A stretch of 60,118 nt of DNA, filler included, from Hausera hauseri (taxonomy: Eukaryota), in the NCBI GenBank assembly GCA_046269625.1. It is 9 parts of 9 records of this genome, joined end to end, with 100 filler letters (N's around TTAATTAATTAA, not from the genome) between each part and the next. Parts side by side here need not be neighbours in the genome. Positions count along the whole stretch, not along the records: positions 52,705 to 60,118 come from JBJURY010016121.1; 8 more parts are not named here. One strand, 5' to 3'. The notes under the pieces are model-generated. The model saw nothing but the letters and a program-made list of their open reading frames with translations. It was not told the DNA's origin and did no database searches. How positions within the stretch are numbered: position 1 is the stretch's first letter; every line of letters starts with the position of its first letter. Positions 9,998-60,118 of the stretch are shown here, piece after piece. The translations under genes and the position numbers were made by a program.

Positions 9998-10045
9998 AAA
10001 AAACGCCTAAAGCCGCCAGAAATTACGGCAAATTCTGGCAAAGGC
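9998..10045 (+). promoter_or_regulatory. -1 ribosomal frameshift signal at the gag/pol junction
   Basis: A_AAA_AAC at 9998-10004, then GCCGCCAGAAATT...AATTCTGGC stem. The same layout occurs at 43727 (+) and 57019-57025 (-). Confidence 0.75.
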
Positions 10046-13733: not shown

Positions 13734-13751
13734 GGGGAGGGGGTAGTGTGG
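13734..13751 (+). promoter_or_regulatory. Polypurine tract and start of 3' LTR (TGTGG at 13747)
   Basis: GGGGAGGGGGTAG directly followed by TGTGG, downstream of integrase and a pyrimidine-rich 3' region. Confidence 0.75.
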
Positions 13752-17866: not shown

Positions 17867-17984
17867 NNNNNNNNNNNNNNNNNNNNNNNNNNNNNNNNNN
17901 NNNNNNNNNNTTAATTAATTAANNNNNNNNNNNNNNNNNNNNNNNNNNNNNNNNNNNNNNNNNNNNAATTATAATGATTACCCC

Positions 17985-20900: not shown

Positions 20901-22967
20901 GAAATCGAATGATACGATGAAAGAGATACAACAATTAGACATTTTCGGAGAGCAAAACACATGTACTTATCTCAGTGAAGAACCTTCAAAAATGAAGAAA
21001 AGGGAAGATTCGTTGTGCGATAGCGGCAAAGTCGAAGAAAATCATGACTTAACGGAACCAAACAATAATACCAAGATGGATAATTTCGTAAAGATATCCG
21101 AATATGAGGAGTTCAAAAAACCCATAAATAACGAACCAATACCTAGCAAGGGTTTGTGTATATTGACGGGTAGGGAATTCTTAAAGATTACCAGTGCTAG
21201 AAAATTTGATTGGAATAAATGTTTTGGAGAACAGAGGATAGTGTTCGCTCCAAATTTTAATCGAGATATACGCAATTGTAAACAGGAATTTGAAATACCT
21301 GGTGGCGTGGATAATACAATTCTAATAGTTGATGAACCCATAGTAAGCGCAATGGAGTCTCCTTTTCGATTCCCCTATGGTTACCAAACTTTCGTAGAAT
21401 GTATGAATTACGATAAACTAGTGAGGATACTAAGGATGAATAGTGGACCACAAACAGATCAAAGTTATAGTTCTGATTTATATAAAGAGACTTCATCTAC
21501 ATTGAACCAACCCGATTATAGATATATAAGAAAATATGAACCTCTGTTTATTGGTAGTATGCGAGACCGAATTCTTTTCACTAATGCTTCAAGCGAGAAA
21601 GAATCACAACTACCTAATATAGACATGTTTATGTTATTACGACAGACATCTCCATTATGTGAAAGGTTCATAACTCAAGAGAAAGCTAGGGAAATAGGAA
21701 AGAAATGTATCAGTTTGTATAAAAATTTTGGAGGAGAATTGGCAAACAAAACAACATCTGATTTATTCATGGTTAATTGTTGGTTGACCTATGTAATAAT
21801 GACAATAAAAGACGAATTAACAAAAGAAAAAATAGAAAAAATAGAGAAAGAGGAAGCTCGAATACTGTGGAATGGCTATTTGCTTAGGGATGAAGACACA
21901 CCCCTAACAGAGGAAGATAATATTAAAATTAATCAACTAGAACAAGTGAATACAGAAGGATTGACCGGTCGATTAAATGCTTTACGTTATTGAATGTTGT
22001 TCTGTATGCTAAATGGAGACCAAAATATGGCAAAACCTTTTAGAGAGGAACGTAAAGAGTACGTTAGTAATACGAAGGTACAGGAAAGAGAGTCGTCGCA
22101 GAATATATTTCGTATGGTAAGTAATACAATAAAATTTTGGGCAGATAAGAATACAAATAACGAAGTCAGTAAGAATGAGATGAATCACAATCAGAAGATA
22201 TCCCCAAGTCTTTCATCAAAGGAAACAAGTTTAGGCCCTTCGTCTCATCGAACGCTAGTTGAAAAACAACTTGAAAAACAAATACAATCTAGTAACGATT
22301 ACTCTAATTTGACACATATGATGATGGAGCATAAAAACAAGAATACACCTCACGAATGTTCTGATCATTTAGGAAAAAGATTACCATACCCAGGTCAAAA
22401 GGAGGATTGGGAAGGCATTGATCCTACATATAAACCTCCATCGAAAAAAGGGAAATATAGTTGTCCCAAGGAAATATTACAAAAAACCACGTCGACACTG
22501 AGGAATGGGAAAAGTTACCAGAGTCGTTAAAAGAGGCAGTGGAAGAATTAAACGAGAACGGTTGCGAATGGGAACCATATGAAACTAATAAACGTATAGC
22601 ACCAGAGCTAATAAAGGCAATACGAGAAGATATAAATATGACACCTAAGGAAACGACTCATGAGACAAAGACAATCCTAACCATTATAACGAAAACGCTG
22701 TAACCTAAGGGAGTATATAATTACACAATGGCCAATGAGATAATTCCTCATTTTAGATTAATAAATAGCTTAAGGATAAGTCCAGCAATCCTCCCATCAT
22801 TGAGGGAAGAAATCAACCAAGTGTTATGCAGACTAGTACATCAGCCACCACACTTCCCAGTAAGTTCAACAAGAATATGTGCAGAAGAAAAAGATATTCC
22901 AAACACTATAAAGAATTTACGCATTATAGCCGACAGGAATGAACAATGGTTAGATGATATCGAACCG
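17985..22967 (+). mobile_element. Decayed large polyprotein: retropepsin-like domain, two double-hydrophobic modules and a duplicated ~220-aa domain; probably retroelement accessory region
   Basis: VKVYGKYVNAELDTTT...DLIIGLDVL at the N-terminus. Same-strand ORFs 17985-19100, 19124-19441, 19528-21993, 21994-22530, 22461-22703 and 22728-end are separated only by stops or frameshifts. A-rich coding strand. Confidence 0.5.
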
Positions 22968-32160: not shown

Positions 32161-33176
32161 CCCTTTAGCTGAGCAAAAATCCAAAGAAAATGTGCTAATT
32201 TTGTGACATAACAAGTCAAATTATGTGTATTATGCCAAGTTTCTAAAATACAAATATATTATCTTTGACTTTTTGTACTTCATGGATATGCATGTCACAG
32301 GTGCTTTAATGTTTCCATTCTGTTGGGAGTCATTCTTGAATCAAAATCTGTTTATTATTAATTAACTGAGTCGTTGAGCACTTTTCATAAAACCACACGT
32401 TCATTGTTTACATTGAATTTAGTTCAATAAATGTTTTTGTTTTGATTTAAAACATCTGCATCAGACTCTTCTGAGGTAGAATTTGGTTACCATGGAAGTC
32501 ATCAGTGCATCAATTCATTTCCTGAAACGATTCAAAACACCTCTGAACCTACAGGAGACAGTCTGACCAACACAGTAAGTCAAAGAGTTTTTCTATAACT
32601 TTTCTTTAACTCTTCTACTTTTATTTAGTTCACACAAGTGTTTTATTATCAGAGGAAGGTTTACATTGAAGTGATACTGATATAGTCTGTAAATGTTCTG
32701 TCATTTTTATTTTTTTACATTTTCCTAGTTAGAATATGTTTTAACTTGATTTTTCTGTAATTGGGTGTTTTATTGTAGAAATGATTCCTGACAATGTTTT
32801 TATTTGTCAGAGCTGACTGAGAAAACTGGAGAAGTTTCAGCTCATGGATGTGAAGAACAGCACCATGGAGTTAGAGTTATCACCAGCGGTAAGTTAGCAT
32901 AGCTTTTAGCTACCCTGAAGAAAGTTTATACTGGTTGCTAGGTAACAGAAAAGGCATTCAAAACAAATGGTAAAGACTTTTTAGAAACTTGAATTTCCGT
33001 CTGTTAAAAAATAAGTAATATTATGATAACAGGCAAAAATGTGTGATATTTCTGAGCTGTTATTTCAGAGAAACAAAACAGGCTGATGTTAATTTAAAAA
33101 ATAGATATGGAGCTTTTAGTCAAGTCCCATTTTCCTTTAGGAAGCAGTTGCCTTCTTGGATTTCTGAACCTGATTT

Positions 33177-33554
33177 TTGCCTCTTTTTTGTATGTTTGCC
33201 ATTGAAAAGACTTGTAAAGTCAAAGAAGAACCTGAAGAACCTGATGGTTATTGGTTTGTCCAGGAGCCACCGGTTGAACCAATCAACACTCCAGTTAAAC
33301 CTGAGTGCAGCGACCAGAGTGAAGCCTGTGTTGGAGATCCAAGGGATTTACAACTACATCAAGTTAAACCCAACCACACTGATGGAAAAAAGTTCATCTG
33401 CATCCAGTGTGACAAGAGATTCATCAGTCCAAGTCATCTGAAGGTTCACCTTCATGTTCACACTGGAGAGAGGCCTTACAGCTGTACCCAGTGTGAGAAG
33501 AGATTCACACAGTCAGGAAGTTTAAAATCACATCAGCTAGTTCACTCTGGATAA
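33177..33554 (+). pseudogene. C2H2 (Kruppel-type) zinc-finger gene, terminal exon, probably truncated
   Basis: [54 protein letters not shown], with TAA in place of the linker Glu. Candidate upstream exons at about 32464-32575 and 32811-32888 end at GTAAG. Confidence 0.85.
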
Positions 33555-39500: not shown

Positions 39501-39600
39501 CTCCGAAACGGACACAACAATTGGTGTCAGATAAATTTCAGTCCAGACAACGTTCTACAACAGGCTTGGATTTGATGGACTACCGGACACAAATCCATAC

Positions 39601-39613
39601 TGGTGAGTTCGAC
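39601..39613 (+). promoter_or_regulatory. Candidate primer-binding site (tRNA-Trp-like) of the downstream CsRn1-like element
   Basis: CCATA-C-TGGTGAGTTCGAC is 10/13 identical to TGGTGACCCCGAC. An alternative Leu-like TGGTGTCAGA lies at 39522-39531. Confidence 0.35.
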
Positions 39614-40689
39614 CATTGTTTTTGGGGCACCCCGCGGTTGTTTCTTAAGCCACATTTTAACTAGAATGTTAAAAGTACATATGTTTGCTCCTACAACTTT
39701 TAACAAAACTCATTTGGCGGATTTGTTATCATGGCTGTCATATCAATTAGTTCCTGCAATGTCATTTTTGACGGTTAGTTCTGCTATACGTTTTACTCTA
39801 GAAAACCCGTAACACAATTCCAAACATATATGCGAGGTTGTAATTGGTCAAAGGACAAACTAGATAAAAATACATTAATGATATATTACGGCACGATATA
39901 CAGGAGTTCATCACCCTTGGAGCCGCAGACAATTGGCCAAGGATCAGAGGTGCTTGTATTCTTCCATCTAAAATGGAATTTAAACAACAGTGGACTGTAG
40001 GATTTGATGGAAATTCCGTATATTTTATTGCTGAATATGCTCATTTACATATCTGGCCAAGACGTCTGTTTCTGTACGGCAGATAGTACTAAAGCTTACA
40101 TGCAAGTGCCAAGGTATTCTACAACAAATTTATCAGTACACCTATCCGAAACTGTTTTTGTCGTTTATGAAAATAATAAAATAGACCGAGAAATATTTTT
40201 TAATTTCTGCCATCATTACAACGGATTAGTGTTACTAAAAGTGCACCAAAATCAGAAACATTAAACGTATCATTTTTACAATCACGTTACATTAGTATTA
40301 TGTCAGGCTTACCGGATTTTACGTTACTGCTAGAGAACTTTCGAAAATCGGAAAACCTCCGCATTAAGTCTCTTAACTGTGATACTTTGGCATATACGTT
40401 CCTGTGTCCCATAAACTGGAGAAATATTGTTATGACAAGAGCACCAAATATCCATTTTATTACTGTTGAGAACTACGGACCTTTTTATATAGTGCTTGAT
40501 AGTGTTATTTGATTGATAAAATATCCTGATAAGGAAGTATCTGATATCAAAGACGTTCATGAGAAAATTAGAAATCTTGTTTTTCCTTTCAAATACGCCA
40601 GATTGATTACAGCTCCAAATGATGCTAATCACAGGTTGTCGGATAATGAAATTACTGACGAACCAAACACTGTCATGGATTCTGGAGAT

Positions 40690-41030
40690 GGAACCTTGCG
40701 CGGTGTTGTGTTATTACCGGATAAAAAACATTTTACGTCGTCAAGAACGCATGGTATTTTACAAGTTTGGAGCATACAGAATAGTAAGAGCATATCCTCG
40801 GTTGACGTTAGTCCAAATGCAACCCTCGTAGATACTTCACCACTCTAATATTCTAACAGTTGATTTAGAAAATGGATGCTTATGTATATAGGATATTAGA
40901 AACGCAACAAAACCTTTAACGGTACACGACATAAAATGGCATGAAGGCCCAATAGTACGAATTCAATTTGACGAGCATGGACGCAGTTTAGCAATTGGGT
41001 CTAACAACAGTTACATATTTTGTAGCATCG
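40690..41030 (+). pseudogene. WD40-repeat fragment
   Basis: LRGVVLLPDKKHFTSSRTHGILQVWSI, then after a frameshift LENGCLCI*DIRN...WHEGPIVRIQFDEHGRSLAIGSNN. Confidence 0.65.
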
Positions 41031-42424
41031 CCCCGTATAAACTCACTTTTCAGGCGTACTACGTCCAGATTACGAATACCCATGTAAGTCACATTACATT
41101 CAATGTGACCAATATTATTGTTACCAAAATGAACGACTCACAAATACATACAGTACTCGTTGGATTAATGAATGGTTCAGATCAGAACCTAACACTACCA
41201 CGTTTTAAAGGAAATTATAAAACAACGTCACAATTATATTTAAAATACACGTCTGTAGTTACTACCTCATGCAATAATTTGATGATCGCTTTATCGAATG
41301 ACCCCAAACATGAAAATGGAGGATCTGGATACAATTTTGTCTTTACAACGCTGAGTCCTATCGTGACTATTGACGAGTTACCAACAAATCTATGGTCAAC
41401 CAGTGAAACTCATTTAGAACTCATTACAATGGTACACAGATTTTACGATTGCGGCCATGTAATAAAATCTGGTGCTCACGGAGTAATACATGCCGTCATA
41501 TACAGTACTGAATTTTTCAATTTTGCCAGAGATCATATGTCACCCGGTATATATTGTCAAGATCTTCAACGAGAACTTTATTTACGAAACTTTATCTACG
41601 AAACTCCGAATTTCCCACGATTTATTTTCTTTAATGATTTGGATAAANNNNNNNNNNATTCTCCCTCAACTTCGGATTACGTTGGCTAGCTTTAACATAA
41701 TCCTTTACTCATGCGACGTCGGTTGTGTAGACAAACCAATTCGATTAAGTCTCAAATTTCATTTTTTTACCTAGGAAATCAACAAAATCTCCTTTTTCTA
41801 TTTTACATATTTCTCATGAACTCCAAAATATTCAAGATTTAAGGCATGTTATTCACGTTGTAAGCACTGAAGATACCAGAGCCCTTAATTGGTATTACAT
41901 TGACTCATCACCTGATCAGGTAATTAACACAATTAATAATGCGGAGCTCCATTTAACTTCTGACATTTGTTTACTTATCTTTCCACCACACAACAGCCGA
42001 TCTCCAGATTAACCATCTATACGGAAGCTTTAATAAAATAGAAAACAATACTCTTATTTTTCTCGGTGGTAGATCTCCACACTTCGAAACAAATAGCTAT
42101 GCATTTCCGTCGCATTTTGCACAGGAATTAAAATCATACATTTGGTTCTCGGCATATAAAGAAATTCCTTTTGAAGCAGATTCCACTGTACCGATTTGAC
42201 AATCGCGATACGTGTGTGCTCGTTGTTGGACACGCAAAATATTACAGTTGTTTCTCTACCGAGGCTGTATAACAAAAGAGATCACACGAAATATTTTAGG
42301 ATCCGTTTCAAACGTAATATCAAACTACAATTACCAGTTAGATCTTTAAAAAGAAACAGAAATTCTCTTAACATCGATCAACCGCATTAAAATACTACAC
42401 TACCCGGTTTACATTATATCACCA

Positions 42425-42643
42425 CCATTCCACCTCTACCTTTTTGTTAATAATAACCTAATGCAAACCGTATATGTCACATAACGTATGGAGACATTAC
42501 AGTTATACGCTCTCATTTATAATACCGCCGCCTAAACTGATTTCTACCTAACTCACAACGGTTTCATTTTAACTAACCGCCCACACATCATGGTCCCACA
42601 TTACCATCTATGTATACACGTCAATCCTAGAATCCGCGGTGGT
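42425..42643 (+). pseudogene. Ubiquitin-like domain ending RIRGG, in frame with Gag
   Basis: PFHLYLFVNNNLMQTVYVT*RMETLQLYALIYNTAA*TDFYLTHNGFILTNRPHIMVPHYHLCIHVNPRIRGG|MISPP, continuing into Gag ORF 42590-43018. Confidence 0.65.
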
Positions 42644-45037
42644 ATGATCTCCCCACCAGCTAGTGACACCACCGATAAGGTGACCACAAAACCAAAATAC
42701 ATTTTCTACTACCCCAAATCAAACCACCCACCTACTTCAACCGACACAAATTCTTCTCACAAAAATCCTATCAGTACCACACCACATTGCACTGAATACT
42801 TTATAGACAATGAAAAGTCTAGCAAAACCTGGCTCCACTTCCATCAACTCTGGTTACAGTCCAACGGTATCACAGACTCGTTATCCAAAGCCCATAATCT
42901 ACTTTACCTTTTGCCAAACTCCATAAAGGCCTCATTCCATAACCTGCTGGACACTTTTCAACACTCTGACCCTTATACCAAATTGTTCGATGCTGTGTTC
43001 GACAAAACCATCAATTGATTCAATAATGCAGCGTTTGTTCAACGAAAATGTAATGGGAATACAAAAACATAGCGATTTCCTACGCACCTCATTGGCTTAC
43101 TTACGTTCTCTTGGCGTCACCAGAAAACATAACTTTGATCTACTTCGACCATATTTCCTTAACGCTTTACCAATTCAAATCGGGGCTTTGTTTACCGTTT
43201 TTGAAGATTCTACAGCCTTTGATAAGCTAGCTTAATTGACCGATAAAGCACACAAAGTCTTACAAATCCAATCACAGCCTATCATATCAACCGCTATCAC
43301 AAATGATGACGATCAACGACATACATCTGTCGAACACCAATTAAATCAATTACGTGCCGAAAATGCAGCACTCCAACACAATCAACGCCATCAACAATAA
43401 ACTGAACGAGATTTCATTCACTTGACGTAAGGGTTTCATACGTGACCGTAACCATTCAGTATCTCGTGGTCGTTCACCTTCACCTGGATTATCACTGATT
43501 TGTTATTACCACGATAATTTGATAGCAATGAGAAAAAATGCCATCTAGGGTACAAATCTTATGATCAAAGATACTATACGAACAACGTCATTTGCATATA
43601 TCGGACAAAATTCATACATAATGCACGCAAATGCATTCTAAGTTGCACGTTTAAAAATAAATCCCACCATGCAAATGACGAACGTACAACTTTCATTTTT
43701 AACAGTCGCTCAGGTTCCCCGTTTTCAAAAAACTGATTTCGCCGCCAGTATTCTTGGCGAATCCTGGCAAAGGCAACCTATCTAATTCCTTTTGCCGACA
43801 CGCTTCATTTGCAGTTTTCACATTAAAAGCTGATATCTCTAATCCTAACATTCAATCCATAGATTTTCTCATCGATATTGGTGCAGCGATATCACTACTT
43901 CCACTTTCTTTTCCGGTTCAACATTCTTCATTGAAAATAAAACCTTTATACACTGCCTCTGGTCAAGCTCTTCGTATTGCCGGAACCTGCAAACTATTTT
44001 CACTCTACAACACTTTTCCTCGTCATTTTATTGGACGTTTACATTCGCTGACGTCCAGACTGCAACACTTGGCTCAGATTTCCTTTCACACTATAATTTA
44101 CTAGTTGATTGTAACCGACTCTGTTTGAAAGCAAATACATCTGTAAACCATAACACAAATATATACAGTATCACAACAACAACAACAACACAGTCCACAT
44201 TAAGTAAGCCATCTATTTTAAAACACTCGGAACTTCCTTCTAATTTTAATAACAACCAATCACAGCTCAAGGTTGACAATAACAATCTGGTATTTTCTGT
44301 CAAATCATCGAAAAATAACACCTAATACTCAAACATGGTTCCGGACCCGACCATCTTACTCCAAACTCCACTTGATTCCTTATTAACAACTAATCACCAT
44401 ATACCAAGGACTGCTGGAAACCCGGTTCATCATCAATTACAATATTCCAACAACTACCCACAAGTTTACAACAATTTGTCCATACTTTTTGTCCTCGTAT
44501 ACTTCTGAAAGATAGAAATTTCACCCCAGTAAAAGGCATTTACCATCATATAATTTCAAGACATCAAAGGCCAATTAGACAAAAGGTCCGTCCATTGTCG
44601 CCGAGACGCAGACAGGCAGTAAAAGCTGAATTTATGGAACTAGAAGAACCGGATATCTTCCGCAGATCTAAATCACCATAATCTTCGCCTCTCCACGTCG
44701 TACAAAAAAGGTAGATCCTTCCGACCATGCGACGATTACCGCCTACTTAACACTTTAACCACAATTGACGCATATCCACTACCATTAATAAAAGACATTA
44801 CATCGGCTTAACACTACCTCCGTTTATTTGACAATCGATTTATCTATAGCTTACCACCAAATCCTTGTCGCACCGGAAGACATCGAGAAAACTGCAGTTA
44901 CCTTACCTTTCGGTCTTTAGGATTATCTATATATGCCTTTCGGTCTCCGGAATGCCGCGCAAACTTTTCAACGACACATCGATTCAATACTTTCAGATTT
45001 CACCTTTGCGCATCCATACATCGACGATATTTTGGTT
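42425..45037 (+). mobile_element. CsRn1-like Gypsy copy 2 (UBL-gag-PR-RT, cut by contig end), degenerate
   Basis: Gag YFIDNEKSSKTWLHFHQLWL...DLLRPYFLNALP. AAAAAAC at 43727-43733. Protease FLIDIGAAISLLP. RT ending HPYIDDIL at the contig end. Confidence 0.9.
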
Positions 45038-45305
45038 NNNNNNNNNNNNNNNNNNNNNNNNNNNNNNNNNNNNNNNNNNNNTTAATTAATTAANNNNNNN
45101 NNNNNNNNNNNNNNNNNNNNNNNNNNNNNNNNNNNNNACCGAAGAAGAATCTACAGATAAACCTGGTGTCATAGCAGCTATATGGAGTATTACAGAACAA
45201 GAAAAGTCATTACTGCAAAAACAACAAAATGACGAACAAATTAAACAAATTAAGGAGTATTTAAAAAGGAAAACGATACCAAGTGATATTAATCTCTATA
45301 CTCAT

Positions 45306-47792
45306 TTGAAACAGTTTGCTGAAAATTATGAAATAAAAGATGATATATTACATTACAATCATAAAGGAAGATTAGTCATAGTTGTCCCTCAAGAAGATAT
45401 AAAGTTGTTATTAACACAATATCATGATGGCATGATGGGAGGTCATCAATCAGTAAAAAGGACTTTAGGAAGATTGAAAAGAAAATATTATTGGTACACT
45501 ATGACTAAAGATGTTCAAGATTGGTGCAAGAGTTGCCCAATTTGTGCCACCAGAAAGAATACGGGTTCAAAAATTAAAGTTCCCCTTAAACCATTAGAAT
45601 GTCCACCAGCCCCAATGGAATTCTCAGCTATGGACATTCTGGGGCCATTACCTATGACAATGAATGGAAATAAGTATATGTTAGTGTTTGTCGACCTATT
45701 TTCCAGATGGCCAGTTGTGATACCGATACCAGACCAGAAAGCTCAGACTATCGCGCAAGCCTTTGTCGAAGAAATTGTTTTTAATTATGGAGCGCCGACA
45801 AAATTGCTAACAGACCAAGCACCAAACTTCAGGGGAGAAGTTATGGCGGAAATATCAAAAATATTTCAGATACTACAATTGAAAACTACCCCATACCATC
45901 CTCAAACAAACGGAGCAGTGAAAAGATTTAATGGAATCTTGACTAATATGCTAGCTACTATGGTCAATGAACGACAAGATGATTGGGACGAGTATATTAA
46001 ACCATGTTTGTTTGCAATTAGAAATACAATTCACCCGGCAACAAAAGAAACACCTTTCTATTTGATGTATCTTAGAGATACTCATATGCCGATTGATTTG
46101 GATTTCAAAATGCCCGTCTCCCATTTAAAAGACATGGAATACAAAGAATTACTAGAGGAAAAATTAGGATATGTATGGGATTTAGCCTCACGTCATATAA
46201 AGATATGTCAAAAAGAATATAAAGAACGCTATGATGAAAAAGCTAAACCACATGACTTTAAACCTGGAGACAAGGTCATGTTGCATACACCTTTGAGTAA
46301 AAAGGGAAGGACACCAAAATTAGACAGACCATACAAAGGTCCATATATGGTTCAAAAAGTAGACGAAACTAACATCTACTTAAATAAAAATAAAAGAAAT
46401 AAAATTGATCCCATAAAAGTCCATGCAAATAGATGTAAGCTAGCACCAACGGATTCAAAAATAAGAAATGGAAATTCTAATCTATTACTGATAGCAATGC
46501 TTATGATGTTAAGTCTAGTAACTTGCGTATCAGCTCAGACCCTCGATGTGAAATATAAAGCCATACAAGTTGGAAAATATCCTTGCATAAAAATCACGGC
46601 TAATCGGAATTTAACAACAGATGAATATATACATATATTCATATCGAAATTACCCGTAGTAGAGAAAGCAACACCAGAGAACTGCGATTTATATTACGAT
46701 CATTCAGTACGTGTTTGCTGTGGGCTCTCATTCGGAGAAACTTATAGAATCCAATATGCAATTGGAAAAAGTGATCACAGCTACAGAACATATTTTTCAT
46801 TTCCTGGCATTACGCACTATTTTCATCGGCCATACTTTCTTATTTCATTTTACACCAAGGTCATGAAAAATGGACCTTGTGTAACAGCGGAACCCGATGT
46901 TGCAATCACGAGACACGTTACATTTAAATACATAGTATTTGATGGTATAAATAGCATTCATTGTAAACCAACTTATCAAAACCCATATATGTGCTGTCCT
47001 ATTGTTTTTGACAAGGAGTATACGATATATTATTGGACCACGTATAACGGTTATACATGGTCAAAAACTTCGGATGGTCCAGAGATAATAGTAAGATCTC
47101 CAGCCAAAAAAATTATAATTTCAACAAAGAAAACAACTACCTCGATGACATCATCTAATATAGTAACTAGTCCAACAATAGAAAAGAAAGTTGTTAAGGA
47201 ATTAGACATAATTATCCAACCAACAACTCATTCATTAATTATTACAGTAACAGATCTAAAAATGTCGAATATAAAATTTGAGTGTTATCTTAATCATAAA
47301 ATAGCCAGTGAAGGAGTATTGACCCCGGATGAACCAACATCCTCCTGTATGTTCTTGGAGGCCGATACCAGTTATCAGATTATTATAACAGAGCTAGACG
47401 AAGACGGACAAGTCCTACAAGTTCTCAAAAGGAAAGAGAAAACGTTGAAATTACCTACGACTGTAACAAAAAGAGTCATGAAAATGAGTACAGTACAAAA
47501 ATCTAAAGAAATTTCGAACGGACATCTTTGGATAATTAGTATATTATGTATTTCCTTAATATTACTGGTCATACTATTACCCTTAACAATTTACTGTTTA
47601 AGAATAAGACGGCGACAACGTAAAGTAAGGGAAATGTTAAATCATTTAAAAATGTTAAGAGAAAACTCCAAAGACTCTTTAGTAAATGTAAGTGCGCCAT
47701 TTTTAAAAAATCAACGGCAAGCTAAAGAGATTACCGATCAAGAGCGCGAAATCCACCGCTTAAAGACACAACCGTTTGTCTATGCACACTAA
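45306..47792 (+). CDS. Gypsy integrase fused to a type I membrane protein (internal signal peptide, three FN3-like repeats, TM)
   Basis: HHCC, AMDILGP, LTDQAPNF, NGAVKRFN, KGPY. Then LLLIAMLMMLSLVTCVSA (about 46482-46535), repeats ending GLSFGETYRIQY / PIVFDKEYTIYY / FLEADTSYQIII, a Thr/Ser linker, TM LWIISILCISLILLVILLPLTIYCL (about 47526-47600) and RIRRRQRK. Confidence 0.85.
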   Translation: MKQFAENYEIKDDILHYNHKGRLVIVVPQEDIKLLLTQYHDGMMGGHQSVKRTLGRLKRKYYWYTMTKDVQDWCKSCPICATRKNTGSKIKVPLKPLECPPAPMEFSAMDILGPLPMTMNGNKYMLVFVDLFSRWPVVIPIPDQKAQTIAQAFVEEIVFNYGAPTKLLTDQAPNFRGEVMAEISKIFQILQLKTTPYHPQTNGAVKRFNGILTNMLATMVNERQDDWDEYIKPCLFAIRNTIHPATKETPFYLMYLRDTHMPIDLDFKMPVSHLKDMEYKELLEEKLGYVWDLASRHIKICQKEYKERYDEKAKPHDFKPGDKVMLHTPLSKKGRTPKLDRPYKGPYMVQKVDETNIYLNKNKRNKIDPIKVHANRCKLAPTDSKIRNGNSNLLLIAMLMMLSLVTCVSAQTLDVKYKAIQVGKYPCIKITANRNLTTDEYIHIFISKLPVVEKATPENCDLYYDHSVRVCCGLSFGETYRIQYAIGKSDHSYRTYFSFPGITHYFHRPYFLISFYTKVMKNGPCVTAEPDVAITRHVTFKYIVFDGINSIHCKPTYQNPYMCCPIVFDKEYTIYYWTTYNGYTWSKTSDGPEIIVRSPAKKIIISTKKTTTSMTSSNIVTSPTIEKKVVKELDIIIQPTTHSLIITVTDLKMSNIKFECYLNHKIASEGVLTPDEPTSSCMFLEADTSYQIIITELDEDGQVLQVLKRKEKTLKLPTTVTKRVMKMSTVQKSKEISNGHLWIISILCISLILLVILLPLTIYCLRIRRRQRKVREMLNHLKMLRENSKDSLVNVSAPFLKNQRQAKEITDQEREIHRLKTQPFVYAH

Positions 47793-47890
47793 TACATGAT
47801 AAAGCCGCAAAATTTTTAGCGACCTATGTAAAGAATAAACAATCAAAATATGACAATATCCTGTCATTTAAAACCGCTTGGCTAACGCTA

Positions 47891-49204
47891 ATGTTTTTAC
47901 TTTTAGTCCAAGAATGTGCAGAACGTACAGAAAGGCCCAATTCCTTCTATAACCATATTATATCTAATCTATGGGCCACTTCCTGCAAAGATTATTGCTA
48001 TTATGGAAAGGCTGTTTTCATTCCTAACAACCTTAAAGGATATTCAGTCCAACAAAGAAGTAGTCTTATAGTCAAATTGCGACAAAACTCAACCAATCTC
48101 TCAGATCTAATAGATATTTCTGAATATACGTATGCCGTATATATTTCAGTCGCAAAAGGAACCATCCAACTTAAGAGCAAATCACATACCCAAGGAATCA
48201 CTGATGTAATGGAAATCCTAAACCGGATAACAGTCCGATTAGATCCTCGATTGTATATTAACGCCACCATCACTATACGAACATGTGAAGGACCATTTCC
48301 TATAATTTATGTGGAAGTAATCAAAAAGGATCAAACACCGCGTTTGGATTACCAAATCCCAAAGTTTACAACCCCCAGACCCAGAGAAATTGACGTAGCG
48401 GAAGGACTGTCATTTACAAGAAGACCAATAATGTCAAAAGAAGAGTTGATAATAATGGCTGTGAATCCAATATATTTATTCACCCCAATCAGGAATACAG
48501 AAACAACCATTGCTGAAATAACCTTAATGAAATTAGATGGTGAAATTATTGTGGACGAAATTTTATGTCCTAGAGAGAAAATCGATAATTATAATAGCCA
48601 TGTGACCGGACTAAAAGAAGACCATATTGTTGGGAAGAGGGATTCTTATTATGCAGAACCTTTTCTAAGAAAAATGATTGTTGGGAAAGTGATTGTAGGA
48701 ATTGATGTTTATCACACCTTTGCCACCACTTTCAGATATGACTACAATAACCTATTGGGGATTAGAGAACTTCTATACCATAATAATGTCAACCCACAAC
48801 GAAAATACACAGCCAAACAAATCCTTACCCAATATAATGGTAATATATATCCTCAAAGGACTCGGGAAAAAGCCCTGACTATATTGAAGATTTATAATTC
48901 GATTCCTGAATACCAGAATGAACAATTTGAAAAACTAACAAGTTCAGAAGAACCAATGGATATACAATCAATTTCCGATTATCCAAATTCATCAAATTCG
49001 ATAATGTCAACCCTACCTATTAACGATCCAAAGCCTATTCAGTTGATAAAAGATTGTTCTATTAATCTTGAACCACTAAAATCAGCTAGTTCTATCGAAT
49101 CTATTGTCGTCGATCTTACAAAGACAAAAAAGAAAAGGACCCCAAAAACCGAAACAATCACCTTAAAAAAACATCAAAAAGAAAGGACGCTTATTACATA
49201 TTAG
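47891..49204 (+). CDS. Accessory ORF with REX4/ISG20-like DEDDh exonuclease fold, catalytic residues apparently lost
   Basis: IAEITLMKLDGEIIVDEILCPREKIDNYNSHVTGLKEDHI...FLRKMIVGKVIVGID resembles LARVSLVD..G..LYD.YVKP...V.DY.T.VSGI...HL...L.GKILVGH. The expected DxE position reads MAVNP. Confidence 0.65.
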   Translation: MFLLLVQECAERTERPNSFYNHIISNLWATSCKDYCYYGKAVFIPNNLKGYSVQQRSSLIVKLRQNSTNLSDLIDISEYTYAVYISVAKGTIQLKSKSHTQGITDVMEILNRITVRLDPRLYINATITIRTCEGPFPIIYVEVIKKDQTPRLDYQIPKFTTPRPREIDVAEGLSFTRRPIMSKEELIIMAVNPIYLFTPIRNTETTIAEITLMKLDGEIIVDEILCPREKIDNYNSHVTGLKEDHIVGKRDSYYAEPFLRKMIVGKVIVGIDVYHTFATTFRYDYNNLLGIRELLYHNNVNPQRKYTAKQILTQYNGNIYPQRTREKALTILKIYNSIPEYQNEQFEKLTSSEEPMDIQSISDYPNSSNSIMSTLPINDPKPIQLIKDCSINLEPLKSASSIESIVVDLTKTKKKRTPKTETITLKKHQKERTLITY

Positions 49205-50091
49205 ATCTGTCCTATAACACTTTGACTGTTCTATGGTACTTTTAGACTGTTCTATGGAACTTTTAGACTATTCTATGGCACTTCCAGACTGTTCTATGAC
49301 ACTTTTAGACTTCTCTATCGCACTTTTAGACTTCTCTATGGCACTTTTAGACTGTTCTATAACACTTTGACTGTTCTATGGCACTTTTACACTGTTTATG
49401 ACACTTTTAAACTGTTCTATGGTACTTTTAGACTGTTCTATGGCACTTTTAGACTGTTCTATGGCACTTCCAGACTGTTCTATGACACTTTTAGACTGTT
49501 CTATGGCACTTTTAGACTGTTCTATGGCACTTCCAGACTGTTCTATGACACTTTTAGACTTCTCTANNNNNNNNNNNNNNNNNNNNNNNNNNNNNNNNNN
49601 NNNNNNNNNNNNNNNNNNNNNNNNNNNNNNNNNNNNNNNNNNNNNNNNNNNNNNNNNNNNNNNNNNCACTTCCAGACTGTTCTATGACACTTTTAGACTT
49701 CTCTATCGCACTTTTAGACTTCTCTATGGCACTTTTAGACTGTCCTATAACACTTTGACTGTTCTATGGCACTTTTAGACTGTTCTATGGCACTTTTAGA
49801 CTGTTCTATGACACTTTTAGACTGTTCTGTGACACTTTTAGACTTCTCTATGGCACTTTTAAACTGTCCTATAACACTTTGACTATTCTATGGCACTTTT
49901 AGACTGTTCTATGGCACTTTAGACTGTTCTATGGCACTTTTAGACTGTTCTATGACACTTTTAGACTGTTCTATGACACTTTTAGACTTCTCTATGGCAC
50001 TTTTAGGCGGTCCTATAACACTTTGACTGTTCTATGGCACTTTTAGACTGTTTTATGGCACTTTTAGACTGTTCTATGGCACTTGAAGACA
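49201..50091 (+). repeat. 21-bp tandem repeat array (consensus GACTGTTCTATGGCACTTTTA) with recurring 19-bp variant; contains a 100-N gap
   Basis: Directly visible. Variants include TATGACAC, CTTCTCTAT, CTTCCAGA and 19-bp GACTGTCCTATAACACTTT. Confidence 0.95.
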
Positions 50092-51024
50092 TTTCATTTG
50101 CACTTTTTCAATCCTGTATGAATCTTTTAGACTTATTTATAGCATTTTAAACGTTTCAAGAGATACGGGAGATATACCAACAGTAATCAGTCTAAACGTC
50201 TTATAATGGTACCAAGTAATGGTGAAAGAATGTCTAAGTGTTATAGAAGTGGTTTCAAATAACGGCATACAAGTAATGTCAAAGAACAGTCTAAATGTCA
50301 TGCCTAACAACGTACTATAGTTACAACGGAGAGCAGAGGTTTCGTGTAGGACTGCAAAAGTCCTTAAATGTTAATGTACACTTATTTTGACGGGGGCAAT
50401 AATGCATATGTACAAATATATCTGCAAAAATCCTTTGGTACCCGCAAAATCATTATTATTATTTTCATAATTAATCCAAACCAAATTTACTCACCATTCC
50501 TTCACGAATTTGAATTTTATTTTTCAAAGGACTCAAAACCTGAATCGGTTTCTTATAGTTATCCGACTGAATCAGAGAAACCGGCCGCCATCCAATCGGT
50601 GCTCGAACCATATAGATCGTATATGATTTATACGGCATTGAACTGTAAAGACAAATGAATCCCGATTCAACATAACCCGGTTTTTTCACACCGAGTAACA
50701 CGACTGTTCCGTTGGGATGTTTGAAAAAATCGAAATAATCACTGAGCGGAGTGAATTTCCTAGCTGCCGGATCACTGACAACACGATAACACGAACTTCC
50801 GCTGCTAACACCGGGACAAAGTGACCATAAAAATGGTGAAAGTAAATTCTGATCGGCCCATCTTGGCAAAAGTGATTTAAAATCGCCGGTCATTTTTCCG
50901 CAATCCAAAGAAACAGGGAAATCATCAGTTTTGATATCTTCCATCGGAATTGGTTCATCGTTATTTGACAACGGAGAAATGAAACTCGATAATTCTTAAA
51001 GTGGAGAATTATAATGCGAGAAAG

Positions 51025-52704: not shown

Positions 52705-52870
52705 GGTGGAGGTAAGACGATGCAGGATATCCTTGATGAGTGGTAAAGGATATGCATCCATGATAGTCAAGTTGTTAAGCTCTCGGTAGTCACCACATGG
52801 TCTAAAGGTACCGTTATTTTTTGTACAACGTGTAAAAGTGATGATCAAGGAGGTTTTGAACGGCGTATTA
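52705..52870 (-). mobile_element. RT fragment of another CsRn1-like copy
   Basis: KNNGTFRPCGDYRELNNLTIMDAYPLPLIKDILHRL. Confidence 0.85.
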
Positions 52871-53949
52871 TCGTTTGTATATAAATCTAGTGCGCAAGAA
52901 ATAAATTCAGGTAAATTCAGAATAAAGTAAAATCCAAAAAAGGCGGCTGAACTAACGTTTTATTAAAACTTAGATAAACAAACAATTTCTATTCAATATA
53001 TTTATCACCTGTATATTGTCATTATTATCCGGGAAATCGCTGATAATATCGGTTTTATTTTCCTGATTCAGTGTTGCACGTGCAACAAAAAAGCGTTTGT
53101 TCAACATTCAAAGCTTCTTTAGCTCTACATTTGAAATATGGAATATCACCTTTAGATTGTGCTCTTCTCGGCTGTACCTAATGTCTTTAGAGACCAGTCT
53201 ATCTACTGGTAATTATCATCACATTCCAATATTATCTCATTCCAATATTGCCACACTGGTGGGGAAAGTCCTCCAATCGACGCCAATCCCTCCAATGCGA
53301 CCATACTCTAAGCACTACATCAGGCCCGTGGCAAGAAGAAGATTATAAAGAGAAGAAGGAAGTGGAGATTGTAGTAGAAAAAAGGAACTTGTACCTATTC
53401 GGTTTTGGTACGTGTTAGACGTTGGACTCTATCTATAAACTTCTCTCTGCTGTAAGTGATAAAAATTACATGACGTGATCTATTAGATGTTACTGGCACT
53501 TTTGGAGTCATTTGAGAGAGATACTGTGGATTTTGTGGTGCTGGAGGATGCTCAATGAAGAGGTGAAAGTGGAGGAGAAGTTGAAAACGGAAAAGGATCA
53601 CGCAAAGAATACGAGACTGGAGATGGCAGCGAATTCTGCGATGAAGGTGAAATGATTAATGAATGTGCAGGTGATGATGGAGAAGCAAATAGTGAAGGAG
53701 ACTGGATGATGACGGAACTAAAGAGATGTGGTCGTCACGCGATAGTGATGGCTGCGAAGGATTAAAATCATCAAGGAAATTAGATGATGACTCAAGTGTA
53801 GAGAAGTTAGTGTTGGGATTTGAAACAATGCTCTTATTCTGGTCATCATCAATGAAGAAGGCTGGCTTATGATTAGAAATGTGTACATTATTGGGTTGGT
53901 CCTTGAGTAAAATAGTGGCAGTGTGAGAAGAAAGACTGAGTAATTTGTA

Positions 53950-56900
53950 AGGTCCAACGTATTGAGGCCGAAAACCAGAAGCTGACGGATCCTTCAGCCA
54001 TACAAACTTGGTTGAGTATATGTCCTCTGGAATATAAGATTTGTCTTTATTTATAAGACGGTAAAAGGCGTTTGAGTTTGCCTCTACAAAGTGAGACTGT
54101 GTGCACGAATGACTTCATCTGATGAACTTTCATCGAAGTTGGAAAGCTCAAATAGTGCATGAATTGGTGTCCCAAAGAGAACTTCAGCCGGGGCACAACT
54201 GGTGGTAGTGGATGGCGTGTTGCGCCAGCCAAGTAGAACAAGAGGAAGAATCGAGGTCCAATTACGATTGTTGTTTGCCAGGATTTTTAAAGAAATCTTG
54301 ATGGTGCGGTGAAATCTCTCAAGAAGGCCATTTGCTTGGGGATGGTACGGCGTCGTATGGAAGTGGGCTGTCCCCAAGTGCTTAACTACAGATTTAAAAA
54401 GATCAGCTTCAAATTGCGGACCCTGGTCCGTTATGATGTAACGTGGTGAACCAAAACAACTGAACCATATCTTGATAAATGCATCTGCTACTGAGTCAGT
54501 GTTGGTTTATCGAAGCGGAACGAATTCAGGCCAGCGTAAAGCGAGATCCATCATGGATAAGATGTATTGATAACCGTTGTCGGATGGCAAAGGCCCGACA
54601 AGATCCAAATGCACAGTGTCAAAACTGGACGTACAAGGGAAGTGGTAAAATGTTGGTTTTAGCTGTTTGTGGACCTTGTATTGCTGGCATGCTGCACATT
54701 CCTTGATCCAGATCTGTACATCGGTACGCATAGTTGGCCATACAACGTGGTGTTGCAGTAAACGAAATGTGGCTTTTGAACCCGGATGATGAAGATAATG
54801 AAAATAATTGAAAGCCGTCTTTGTAACGATGGGGAAAGAATGATTTTCTTGTTCGTCGAGTTGGAAGTGCCATAAGCGATCTTATCAATGATTTCAACAG
54901 ATTTTAAAGCTTGGAGAATGTCAGATGATGGCTGATTGCTTCTCAGGACCTCTGAGGAGAAAATTGGCTGAACTGTAATGGAGTTAACCGACCCCGAAAG
55001 AAAATCCGCTACTAGATTTTTGGTACCTAAAATATATTTCATGGAAAAACTGAACGTTGCCAGGCATGATGTCTGTCGTTCTTGCCTAGGTGAGGGCTGT
55101 TTCAAAGTCATTATGTAAAGTATTGGCTTATGGTCGGTTTGGATGGTAAATTGACGTGAAAGAAGCAAGTACTTGAAATGCTTTACCGCTAAAACTACAG
55201 CCAAAAGTTCACGATCGAATGTTGAGTATCGGCTTTTAGGTTGCGTGAGCTTTCGGGAATAGAATTCTAATGGCTCATCGACGCCATTATATATTTGGTG
55301 TAATATCACACCAGTTGCTGTGGTTGAGGCATCGGTAGTTAATATTATTTCAGCGTTTGGCTTTGGAAAAGCCAAGATTTCCATAGTTTTCAGACCTTCT
55401 CAAAGGCGATAAAATTGGTTTACTAGATTGAGAGTCAAATGGATTAATTGTCTTTTTATCCCGGATTAGAGGTGTGCGAAAGGTGCCATTAGTTCGAAGC
55501 AATGTGGCACGTATTTATGTACGAAATGCAGTGTTCCTAGAAAACTCTTGATGTCGGTAGTGGTGATAGGTAATGTAACATTTTTCAATTGTTGTAGGCG
55601 ATCAGAATGGGGCGAATGACCTTCGGGAGTAATTATGTGGCCCAGGAAGTTGATGAGTTTCTGGAAGAAATTGCATTTGGCAAAATTAATTTGCAGCTTG
55701 CTTTGATTCAATCTATGGAAAATGATTTTAAGGTGCTCATCATGGTTTGATCGAGATGGAAGCGACTAATATGTCATCTATGTATGGGTGAGCAAAATCA
55801 AGACGAGAAAGAACGGTGTCAATGTGGCGCTGAAATGTCTGAAATGCACTTCGTAGGCCGAAAAGCATGAAGATGTACTCATAAAGGTCAAATTGTGTGA
55901 TGACAGCAGTTTTTGGAATGTCATAAGGTGCAACAGGAATTTGATGGTAGGCCTTGTGCAAATCAATAGTAGAGTATTTATTGGTGTTATTGAGACTATG
56001 AAGAATATCCTTAATGAATAATAGTGGACAGGCATCTGCAATAGTCAAATTGTTTAATTGTCGGTAGTCGTCACATGGCTTACAAGTTCCATCTTTCTTT
56101 ACTACTACATGAAGAGGGGAGGCCCATGGAGAATTCGATCTCCGAACGATGCCAGACTTTTCCAGTTCATTAAACTCCTGTTCCACAGCTTTACGTCTGC
56201 GTGGCGACAAAGGTCTTGCCTTCTGTTTGATGGGCCTCTGAAGCTCCGTTACAATGTGATGATAAGTTGAGGATGACAGCTTGAAGTTGATGTCTTTTTT
56301 AACTATTCGAAAGCATGATGTTGTGATATACGATCTAAGATCAGAGTCTAAAGATAAGAATGATTGAGGCGTATCTTTAGAAAGAACAGCTGCAGTGACT
56401 GAAGAAAGGCAACTGGCATCGCTACTGTCGACACCTAATTTGGATTTCTGTTTCAAAATATACACAAGATTTTCTTTCGTAATTGAAGGTATGCCAACTT
56501 TATCGGAAGTTTTTTCAATAGATGAAGAAACGTCCAACATGTTTCCAGATGAGTGCAATGAATTGCTTGCTAGATTGTCTGCGAGACACATGTTTGAAGT
56601 TGAAATCGAATTTTTCTTAGAAGACAGCTGTATTTGCAGTCTACCAATAAATCATGAAAGGCAAGAAAATCTGAGCCGATTATGGGAGATTTAATGTTGG
56701 TCACGTGGAACTTCCAGACAAACGTATTTGGCAAGTTGGCGAATGTAAAAGTCAATTCCGTAGTTCCTGCAACGTGCAACGGTTGTCCACTGGCAGTGAA
56801 AAGCGGTGGACAGGAAATCATAGTCAAGGTAGGAACGAAGGACAACGGAAGAAGTGAAAAGGCAGCTCCTGAATCTATAAGAAAATCGATGTGTGAACTA

Positions 56901-58299
56901 TCGCTGCATAAAAGTGCAGATTTTAACAGAAATACTGCAGAGGCGGTGTTGAAACGGCCCGAAGATTGAGCGATATTGCCTGCGCCAGAATGTGTCATAA
57001 CATCTGGCGGCATTATTAGTTTTTTGGTGGATTTGGAGGAAAGGAAGAAGAGGAAGAAAAGCTAGGAGATTTTTTGTTATAATGTATACAACCAGGCACA
57101 CATGATCTGGCCTGTGACTGATATTTGTTGTGGTATATACAAATAGAGTTATTTACAGCGTATCACTCACTAAAGAATCGACAGCCCAAGAAACATTTCC
57201 TTGCTTCCTTTCAAAAACGCATGTGGTAGAAACAAGTCATGCGTTCGCCAGGTGAAATGGACCGAGAAGAGTGCATTGAAATGCTTCGCTTTCGTGAACG
57301 TCTGGTTTCACTTCGTTGAGGCCCATTAAGACTACTTAGTTGGCTAGTAATGACCAAGATCGATTGTTGTAGCATGTCAAACTGTTGCTGCATCATTTGC
57401 AACTGTTGAGTAAAGAGTGTCGTATCTGTAGTTGGAGCACACGTGGTTGCAGCAGCAACAGGGAGAGAACTGTTAGTATGAAGAATCTCAAAAGATTTGT
57501 CAGCCATTAATACCAGTTTTTCAATTGCAGTGGATTCGTCAACAACGGTCAGCAAGGCTCTGATTGAGGTGGGCAAAGACGATAAGAAATAACGGCGAAT
57601 TAAATCCGCGTTATTCGTAGGGGTCACTCCTAGCGCGCTGAGCTGTAGAATGGCTGTTTGGAGAAAGTCGGGTGGCTTTTGGTTCCCTATTGCGTGTAAA
57701 TTAAAATACTTTTGTATTATGTTGTCAATCGATGGATCCGTGACATGCAGTACAGCTTCGCAGAGTGTCTCGTAAGGCGTAGGGGATTGTAGCAGCTCGA
57801 AAATATTATTAATTTGCTGCTTGACGTTGGCAGGAATAAGAATTAAAAGGCTATTGACTCGCACAAAAGAATCTGTAATGTTGTTCGATTTTAGCCACTG
57901 CTGGTAAAATTGGAGCCATGGCTTGCGGGAGTTGTTTTTATCAAGGAAGAATTTAACACAAGGTAAATTTAACGAACCTCGTGACTGTTGGGAGTGTGGC
58001 AAACGATATATGTTGCCTGTATTCGTAAATTTATCATCCTAGCAGGATGAATTTGTATCCGATCCACCCCGGAGGCGAAATTTGAGCATAAGATGGATAA
58101 CTGAACGTTCATGGCATACGAAAGACAAAAGTGAGTCGGCGGCATGTACAGTGATACATTAATGTGTGAAATAGAAATTGGCAGTGTCGAGTGAGGAGGA
58201 TAGAGAGGTGTACAGTAGTTGCGCCGTGAAATTGAGTGGAGCCTTAATGGTAGTTATGTGTTTATTGTTATTGAAGATAAGGAAGGAGAGTTGTACGGA
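53950..58299 (-). mobile_element. CsRn1-like Gypsy copy 3 (UBL-gag, -1 frameshift, PR-RT-RH-IN), degenerate
   Basis: Gag about 57016-58062 (KPWLQFYQQWL, DLIRRYFLSSLP, CFYHMRF). AAAAAAC at 57019-57025. Protease FLIDSGAAFSLLP. RT HPYIDD. RNase H TTDAS, TDHKP. Integrase HLDLVGP, YHPQANGLLERFH. Confidence 0.93.
58063..58299 (-). pseudogene. Ubiquitin-like domain ending FRLRGG, in frame with Gag
   Basis: SVQLSFLIFNNNKHITTIKAPLNFTAQLLYTSLSSSLDTANFYFTH*CITVHAADSLLSFVCHERSVIHLMLKFRLRGG|SD. Same frame as ORFs 58159-59013 and 57211-58002. Confidence 0.75.
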
Positions 58300-59320
58300 A
58301 GCAATACCAGGAGAATGGTAAAATTCAAAAGAAGCTTGTGCGGTTTGCTTCCGTGTTAACAAGAGATATGGGCGTGCAGCCGGGATAACGGTGGCAAACG
58401 ATGGTTTGAACGTATGAAACAGATGAACACTAGTAATTACTTGGATAGTAGTCCCCACAAGGCATCCCATTCTTTTGTCTCTGAATCTACTTGATTGTGT
58501 TTCATGTCGGAAAAAGATGTGCGACAGCATAAATGTACAATGGCTTATCCAATCGTCAGTCGTTTGACGTAATGCAGTAAATGTATTTTGGTAAATGTGG
58601 ACTTGTTCAGTAATCGACTTGACGTGTATTACGAGAAAGCCGCTACACCTTTCCACGTGGAATAGCATTATCGGATTGCAAGTTTGGTGTTTCATTATAA
58701 TGTCTTTAAACAATTGTTTCTGTTTCAAAACTGTTGACATGCGCATGGATGTGGTGAGGACGCTGATATTTTTTACTAATTTAGTCGCAAAATAGCGAAA
58801 ATTCACACAAAAACTACTATCGTGAATACACGACAAAATAAGGTCTTGTATTTGAGGAATATGGTGACAAAGTGAAATTCTTATTAGTTTATATTGACCT
58901 GTTGACATGCTATCTGTGTAGGAGTATTTTGACTCAGATGCATAGGTTGCAATTGCGCTGCTCTCAGTTTTCAGATTAGATTTTGACACAACCACTTTAA
59001 CACCATGCAGCATATTCGGTCTATTTGTGTTCAGTCAGAACAATGTAATAGAAATCTGGATGTCTGTGTTGTTCTGATTCTACAGGTGCATCCCATTGGT
59101 AAGTCGAATGCTGTACACCTATACTAGAAAAGTTCGCAAATGAAGGGACATTAGACACAAATAATTTGGTCTTTATCAGCGGTCGTTTTAAGTTAACATA
59201 CATTTGCTGATCATCAGAGAGCAATTCTATATCATCTGGGGAATTCTGGTGAATTGGTGTCGAGTAAATGGTCACGATTTTTTGCAGTGTCTCTTCAGAT
59301 TGTCGTTTGCGATTGAACAA
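58159..59320 (-). CDS. Unknown leader ORFs upstream of UBL-Gag
   Basis: ORF 58159-59013 (284 aa) is in frame with UBL-Gag. ORF 59021-59320 is in frame with 59351-60115. No recognisable motif. Confidence 0.45.
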
Positions 59321-59350
59321 AACTGAAAGATTAATTTGTACAAGCCAACA

Positions 59351-60115
59351 CTAATTTGGAGTAGGAGCAGTGTCAGAAGTTGTAGATTTGTCATAAATTT
59401 TGTAATTCATACACAATGACCTGTACAGATAAAATTTAAGAGCATCACCTGGGCCGTACCTTATCAGTTCATCTAATGTTACCTCGTACAGTCGACCTTG
59501 TAAATGTTGTGGAAGCTTTGGCAAAACACTTCCAGGTGTAATCGGTGTGAAGTTTTTGAGCAATTTTTTAAACAGCTTTTTTGCTAAATTTCTCTCAGTT
59601 CCTTCATATCCAGAAACCGTTGTCGAGACAAACACAAACCTAGAGAAATAACGAGGATACCTATTGGTAATATGCAATGGAATGGCCGCTGCTTCATCAA
59701 TACACAACAGATCACAAACCAACGACTCTGTTTCCGATGGTTCAACATAACGTATAACTTGAGAAAGTTTCCCTCGTTTTAATTCGAGTTTCGTTAGGAC
59801 TTTTGTCTTATTATCAAATTGTGATGTCTTATTTTCGTAATAAACGTGTTCTGAATATACGAAAGCCTTCGATCCCAATTTCACATACTGCGATAACGTA
59901 ATAATGTTTGTTGGACTAAAACCCAACAAACCGTCACTGAACGACGTTTTCATAACGGGCCAACATAAGTCACTTACTAACTTTCGATAGTTTAAGTCTC
60001 CTTTAAAAATTACTAACGACGTCCGTTTGAGATTGTCGTACCAATCTGGACAGATCGATATCATTTTATGGAACGGATGAGATAAAGTTAAAAATATGAG
60101 GTTGAACCGACACAT
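59351..60115 (-). CDS. Chimeric ORF: ARMT1/DUF89 C-terminal fragment fused to NAT10/TmcA helicase-domain fragment
   Basis: SLVIFKGDLNYRKLVSDLCW...F.P is the ARMT1-like motif. QVIRYVEP...LLCIDEAAAIPL...VFVSTTVSGYEGTERNLAKKL...RLYEVTLDELIRYGPGDAL...LC is NAT10-like. No introns. Confidence 0.8.
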   Translation of the reverse strand: MCRFNLIFLTLSHPFHKMISICPDWYDNLKRTSLVIFKGDLNYRKLVSDLCWPVMKTSFSDGLLGFSPTNIITLSQYVKLGSKAFVYSEHVYYENKTSQFDNKTKVLTKLELKRGKLSQVIRYVEPSETESLVCDLLCIDEAAAIPLHITNRYPRYFSRFVFVSTTVSGYEGTERNLAKKLFKKLLKNFTPITPGSVLPKLPQHLQGRLYEVTLDELIRYGPGDALKFYLYRSLCMNYKIYDKSTTSDTAPTPN

Positions 60116-60118
60116 TTC

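Follow-up and report, generated by a model that had tools for sequence, protein, structure and literature searches.

The window, meaning the whole stretch of 60,118 nucleotides of Hausera hauseri DNA that was analysed, is made up of short contigs joined by N-linkers, and the last of these (52705-60118) carries the decayed LTR retrotransposon and host gene pieces described here, all on the minus strand. Pfam domains along this strand run from gag through protease, reverse transcriptase (RT) and RNase H to integrase, which is the order of Ty3/gypsy elements (Metaviridae); the protease match is weak (E 0.04). Gag, of the CsRn1 type (57181-58062), is directly preceded by a ubiquitin-like domain (UBL; 58063-58332) and followed by a decayed pol region (54084-57061) interrupted by stops and frame changes. 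Upstream of the UBL lie an open and coding-like leader in the same frame, termed leader X (58333-58991), a degenerate primer-binding site (PBS) of the tRNA-Leu(CAA) type (58992-59005), a stretch containing a frame change near 59030 (59006-59188), and pieces of two host genes, NAT10 (59213-59917) and ARMT1 (59894-60097), which overlap in a crossover zone (59894-59917). At the far end is a candidate 3' LTR of 444 bp (52876-53319), beginning with TGTA and ending with TACA. It is adjoined by an RT fragment of a related element (52705-52871, minus strand).

The two host pieces share a minus-strand frame (60118-59354) of 255 codons without a stop, truncated where the window ends; about 15.6 stops would have arisen in it by chance (P(0)=1e-7). 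Pfam assigns residues 9-56 of this frame to an ARMT1-like domain (E 1.4e-9) and residues 69-238 to the NAT10 helicase domain (E 2.4e-22), and the PDB matches agree (human ARMT1 331-401 and human NAT10 314-488), so that the single frame described in the earlier note stands. The ARMT1/DUF89 piece is C-terminal, includes GDLNYRKL and stops just short of the RTLK motif; the first seven or so codons of the frame are off the ARMT1 register, and the piece continues past the window end in another frame. The NAT10/Kre33 piece begins after Walker A and corresponds approximately to residues 313-553. NAT10 similarity resumes past the stop at 59353-59351, as the first 47-49 residues of the next frame (59350-59021) still match NAT10 505-553, which places the stop within a single colinear NAT10 piece. 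One frame change then connects 59350-59021 to a 291-codon frame (59034-58162) that enters the UBL, which is the onward path proposed earlier; the placement of chimera, UBL and Gag on one strand also holds, and extends to the whole gag-pol series. There is no intron-sized gap in either alignment, and both pieces are partial, apparently intron-free and in sense orientation, as LTR-mediated retrocopies are.

Residues 68-75, at the joint, suit both gene families: S68, P69, N71, T74 and L75 are typical of NAT10, and G66-F67, P69, T70 and L75 of ARMT1. The joint thus falls in a shared S-P-x-N-x-x-x-L motif, as seen at the protein level with homologues from other species. Such a pattern is expected of template switching driven by microsimilarity and probably reflects it, in agreement with the earlier proposal that host coding fragments were captured in this way; since the microsimilarity is in codon register, the in-frame joint is explained without selection.

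Sequencing reads bear on the joint as well. Run X1 is a public run, possibly from the source sample, and provides good but not independent proof. Its contigs on 59310-60118 number 111 (three match only in part) and show no joints, and their summed depth is approximately 200-230 and unbroken across the ARMT1/NAT10 joint. These contigs are 90-99% alike, which indicates several divergent copies of the chimera, and one low-depth contig is identical to the window over 59975-60118. Misassembly at the joint, which the earlier note wished to see checked in reads, was rejected, given unbroken depth and no loose ends (none of the eight contigs listed of the 111 spans the joint). No joint is listed between 58864 and 60118, and chimera, PBS and leader X are similar in depth: the chimera has 0.77 times the depth of leader X, with no step at 59005, summed contig depth being a weak measure. 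The depth falls from approximately 1500 over the UBL to approximately 230 near 58400, the boundary between leader X and the shared body of the element, and leader X is therefore itself variable among copies. At the frame change near 59030, approximately 185 of a depth of 199 differ in length from the window. Over pol the depth reaches 25,000, indicating an element with very many relatives. Coverage of the chimera region by a further run (X2) was thin, and that run was left out.

Judged from the residues present, neither host piece can work as an enzyme, because NAT10 has lost Walker A and its acetyltransferase half, ARMT1 has lost RTLK and its C-terminal end, and of 100 near-invariant NAT10 columns 59 are kept and the other 41 altered. 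Walker A lies approximately 30 residues ahead of the start of the NAT10 piece in the three homologues checked, and the piece ends near residue 553 of about 1020, leaving out the acetyltransferase (GNAT) half. After the ARMT1 piece, RTLK is found in 7 of 12 homologues and RTL in 9, and it is absent from the window copy. No fused ARMT1-NAT10 protein occurs among the 12 and 120 homologues listed for the two pieces. The 23 majority differences between the window copy and run X1 are spread evenly over codon positions 1, 2 and 3 (8/8/7), so the window copy decays neutrally. If the NAT10 divergence had been reached by neutral decay, approximately 235 codons would usually have gathered 4-6 stops, and the probability of at most one stop is 0.003-0.06 (0.007-0.37 over a wider range); this is modest evidence that the frame, rather than a function, was retained for some time, and a fast-evolving host NAT10 would weaken the argument. 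The two pieces appear to differ in age: the ARMT1 piece has 53% identity to 11 homologues, which have a median of 58% among themselves, and the NAT10 piece has 35% identity to 120 homologues, for which the corresponding median is 69% and the minimum 47%. Because the NAT10 piece is far below orthologue level and the ARMT1 piece near it, the comparison suggests that NAT10 was captured before ARMT1.

The earlier note saw no PBS between the chimera and the UBL, and regarded such a site as evidence against its inner-leader reading; one is probably present. A TGG-headed match to the complement of tRNA-Leu(CAA) starts at 59005, immediately behind a CA dinucleotide, and departs from that complement by a single substitution and a single gap. 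This is the best Leu-site match in the 1.8-kb leader (unanchored P=0.034), and it is also the best in a test anchored on CA plus PBS (P=0.001, 1000 shuffles), where the anchoring was designed after the site was seen. None of 48 control pieces reached this score except the PBS of the second UBL-Gag element in the window, where 10 bases at 39522 match the Leu site perfectly (P=0.005). When the Leu motif was searched for without gaps, counts stayed at chance level, and 59005 was not among the matches because of its gap. A primer site for tRNA-Trp, the CsRn1 type, had no match at up to three mismatches on the sense strand of 58040-60118. The 59005 site stands 314 codons ahead of the Gly-Gly before Gag, and the distance is 336 residues in the closest relative. 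The peptides WCQK, GVRS and [ML]VSEV, which are three reading frames of a single DNA motif, occur upstream of Gag in 17 of 83 related proteins, where 0.3 would be expected, and in only 1 of 132 controls; this motif is the start of a tRNA-Leu(CAA) probe given in PMC7997516. These matches point to a UBL-Gag clade whose primer site is of the tRNA-Leu type, with a degenerate Leu site probably lying between the chimera and the UBL. With a PBS-like site in that position, the chimera is to be placed at the 5'-LTR position and not in the inner leader, probably upstream of a PBS or of a PBS relic. Run X1 shows no length difference at the imperfect site, though an active primer site should be renewed in each cycle. 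In three related proteins (P0144, P0162 and P0215), M-V-S-E-V is found within the first 10 residues, and an ATG overlapping the primer site may start the leader-UBL-Gag frame.

The UBL ends in RLRGG at 58063. A profile made from the window's three UBL-Gag regions retrieved 75 relatives among 1.84 billion proteins, and 12 of the 53 relatives scanned have a Pfam ubiquitin match, two of them almost canonical. The UBL in the window matches nothing in Pfam directly; a profile of 13 relatives with Pfam ubiquitin signal matches it over 58284-58063 (E 5e-5). Its model (with X at two stops) is a beta-grasp fold that Foldseek relates to ISG15 and ubiquitin with probability 1.00 (TM(target) 0.65-0.76 for single domains in the top rows). 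Gly-Gly precedes Gag in 35 of the 37 relatives that have at least 70 residues there (2.9 expected), a count somewhat biased by the GG contained in the search profile. None of 29 UBL segments, inspected by eye, has a Met at the ubiquitin start, and translation must therefore begin upstream. By analogy with known ubiquitin insertions, Gag may be released in this clade by cleavage after Gly-Gly. The Gag motif CHCC (CX2HX9CX3C), at 57234, has one internal stop in the window copy and is present in 54 of the 75 relatives. The earlier reading of this region as UBL and Gag is confirmed in fold and in Gly-Gly, and two further stops that had gone unmentioned are to be added to it: the UBL is interrupted at 58161-58159, and the interval from Gly-Gly to the Gag core at 58041-58039. 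In P0163 and P0174 a near-canonical ubiquitin (Pfam E approximately 1e-22) is fused to Gag, the UBLs of most relatives being strongly diverged; it may represent recent replacement or repeated capture. An ESM Atlas search with residues 625-996 of P0133 gave only sub-threshold DUF7041 and ubiquitin leads. A metagenome scan with the window's family yielded no UBL-Gag loci and a second scan seven CsRn1-type loci without a UBL, and scans for relatives among viruses returned one phage false positive and otherwise none.

Host gene pieces accompany other members of this clade, on both sides of the PBS signature. Upstream of it are Rrp44-CSD1 in P0133 and P0208 (weak) and histone H2A in P0160 and P0212 (Pfam); downstream of it are CNOT1 in P0133 and a 5'-nucleotidase in P0215 (Pfam). 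These related proteins are gene predictions, in which false introns may skip stops. Among the host genes concerned are those we take to be DIS3 and NT5C2. The leaders of P0154, P0151 and P0162, which we presume to be HSP90-, ARP8- and LRRC47-like, have no Pfam support beyond a weak LRR match and were not counted. Between its PBS and its UBL, the window's second UBL-RGG-Gag element (39522-42645, plus strand) holds a CFAP43-like WD40 piece (E 4e-4), which is decayed and separated from the UBL by a 10-base gap. A third UBL-RGG-Gag element (8742-13760, plus strand) has a UBL-Gag frame open for 232 codons, and a GC-rich stretch resembling an opposite-strand LTR stops just ahead of its UBL. Leader X itself had no match in Pfam, NCBIfam, PDB, the ESM Atlas or a search of longer proteins (the last being weak evidence), and the sequence after the PBS signature of P0133 does not align with it in any frame (best P=0.05). 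The earlier idea of a variable leader for host cargo thus survives in part: the DNA before the UBL varies and the host pieces of relatives differ, but the chimera sits upstream of the usual leader. For the UBL-Gag clade the variable cargo region does hold, but it reaches beyond the primer site as far as the LTR position.

Within the window, which stops at 60118, the two ends of the chimera-bearing element do not match. An LTR candidate is seen only at the 3' end; it has no twin upstream of 59005, and a comparison with that DNA brought out no resemblance (P=0.2). Starting approximately 22 bases into this candidate LTR is a decayed Rab7-like piece (53025-53297, minus strand; residues 101-189, E 3e-4), so that the same element bears a host scrap at its 3' LTR position. 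A plain picture of cargo in both LTRs does not fit, because the 3' LTR is unmatched upstream and the depth ratio of chimera to leader X is 0.77 and not at least 2.

The explanation that we favour, to which we assign a probability of roughly 55%, is that a decayed two-gene mosaic, made by RT template switching, lies directly upstream of a likely tRNA-Leu PBS in an element whose Gag is led by a cleavable UBL. Host mRNAs would be co-packaged with the element's RNA and copied when RT leaves it, and switches particularly around first-strand transfer would deposit scraps at the LTR position, the NAT10 piece first and the ARMT1 piece later. Translation would start upstream of the UBL, and cleavage after Gly-Gly by host enzymes would give Gag a fixed N-terminus whatever the leader, which would relax selection on leader content. 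The chimera would then be a passenger without enzyme activity, its frame probably kept open for a time by read-through into leader, UBL and Gag. A more far-reaching extension, which taken as a whole we regard as tentative and doubtful, is that a widespread and so far undescribed gypsy clade fixed a cleavable ubiquitin before Gag and thereby turned everything upstream, LTR included, into a free cargo zone. In that extension, translation would begin in host-derived sequence, either within the LTR end or ahead of it, and continue across the primer site and a leader that also stems from the host; an open frame would be selected for whatever its content, and the element would thus keep shuffling pieces of host genes in frame.

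Somewhat unlikely, on balance, is the alternative that a working 5' LTR and PBS lie beyond 60118, that the 59005 site is a dead relic, and that ARMT1, NAT10, leader X, UBL and Gag once formed one ORF1 selected to stay open. The flat depth across 59005, with steps only near 58400, would follow naturally from this arrangement, as would a 3' LTR without a twin upstream of 59005; most of the X1 depth differs in length at the frame change, which other copies need not have, and the stops are fewer than neutral decay predicts. The deficit of stops is weakened, however, if host NAT10 evolves fast, and the in-frame joint can be explained by codon-register microsimilarity without selection. Moreover, relatives with a perfect PBS signature also bear host pieces upstream of it, and the host scrap at the 3' LTR position of the same element shows that cargo in an LTR position needs no second layer.

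Less probable again is that the chimera arose as a retrocopy of its own or belongs to the flanking DNA, either left beside a gypsy element whose 5' LTR was lost or brought next to it through later recombination or through repeats collapsed in the assembly. The unmatched ends of the element, the short contigs of the window, the abundance of relatives seen in pol depth, and the lack of any listed contig covering the whole stretch would all permit this. Against it, several divergent copies give much the same depth over the chimera, the PBS and leader X, no joint is listed over 58864-60118, CA stands exactly ahead of the PBS, and the same order of cargo, PBS, UBL and Gag recurs in relatives. A functional new enzyme or accessory protein, combining phosphatase and RNA helicase pieces for the element or the host, is highly improbable: the long, open, multi-copy frame with its low stop count is outweighed by the missing NAT10 and ARMT1 motifs, the changed NAT10 columns, the even spread of differences over codon positions and the lack of a fused protein among the homologues listed. 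The template-switched mosaic is thus preferred, with the chimera most probably a dead passenger produced by a known process.

That process is LTR-mediated retroposition as described in animals by Tan et al. 2016 (PMC5131818), where retrocopies take over part of the ORFs that lie between the two LTRs and template switches occur at microsimilarity. The chimera resembles those retrocopies in being intron-free, in sense orientation and partial, in joining pieces of at least two parental genes, and, as judged from the protein comparison, in microsimilarity at the switch point, with further copying afterwards; it differs from those described there in that gag-pol is retained and the pieces lie upstream of a PBS-like site and in the candidate 3' LTR. 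For the UBL, the nearest precedent is in cytopathic pestiviruses: the ubiquitin insertions of BVDV CP Rit and Osloss, for which cleavage is reported as experimentally shown (PMC8310069, PMC13517609), define the N-terminus of the next protein even when the ubiquitin unit lacks its first residues and stands behind other host sequence. Those are sporadic insertions in an RNA virus, whereas here a strongly diverged UBL is fixed in a clade of LTR retrotransposons and cleavage is inferred. Within Ty3/gypsy, the CsRn1 clade (PwRn1, AgCR) is described with a CHCC Gag motif and a tRNA-Trp primer site (PMC2582038). The present elements share the CHCC motif and the gypsy domain order, with a DUF7041-type capsid domain in relatives, and depart from that description in their tRNA-Leu site, their N-terminal UBL and the host scraps around the primer site. 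Burro/GYPSM1, a giant planarian gypsy element, also carries host-derived domains, including a ubiquitin-like one (Ubi2/SUMO-like; PMC6431247); as described there, however, Burro begins with Gag and keeps its extra domains, UBL included, stably inside one polyprotein, whereas here the UBL precedes Gag and ends in Gly-Gly, and the host pieces vary by family.

Gene capture by LTR elements is thus known, and what appears new is the clade with UBL, Gly-Gly and Gag behind changing host leaders. Neither that clade nor host-gene capture inside LTRs in the present layout was found in the literature searched, which lay outside Repbase and subscription journals. The importance of the locus accordingly lies in the vehicle: a retrotransposon clade, represented by dozens of metagenome proteins, with a UBL and Gly-Gly before Gag and host pieces on both sides of the PBS. 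If host deubiquitinases release Gag, the pestivirus trick has become fixed in a retroelement lineage, and this would explain the tolerance of constant overwriting of the 5' region. The clade offers a testable path to in-frame domain shuffling in animal genomes, and gene callers will annotate such leaders as novel fusion proteins.

Several other features were noted in the window. An intron-free CLK/LAMMER kinase piece of 275 codons (17042-17866, minus strand), at a contig end, is possibly another retrocopy. At 4997-6436 (minus strand), pieces of a Monjiviricetes-type fusion glycoprotein precede gypsy-like frames for protease and RT, which are on that strand as well. At 45138-49204 (plus strand), an integrase is in frame with a long extension having membrane-like segments and is followed by a 492-codon frame without a Pfam match; a tandem repeat of short period occupies 49200-50150. 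A C2H2 zinc-finger exon is found at 33174-33554 (plus strand), and 17967-22530 (plus strand) holds four long frames without a clear Pfam match, together with a 485-bp internal repeat of 69% identity.
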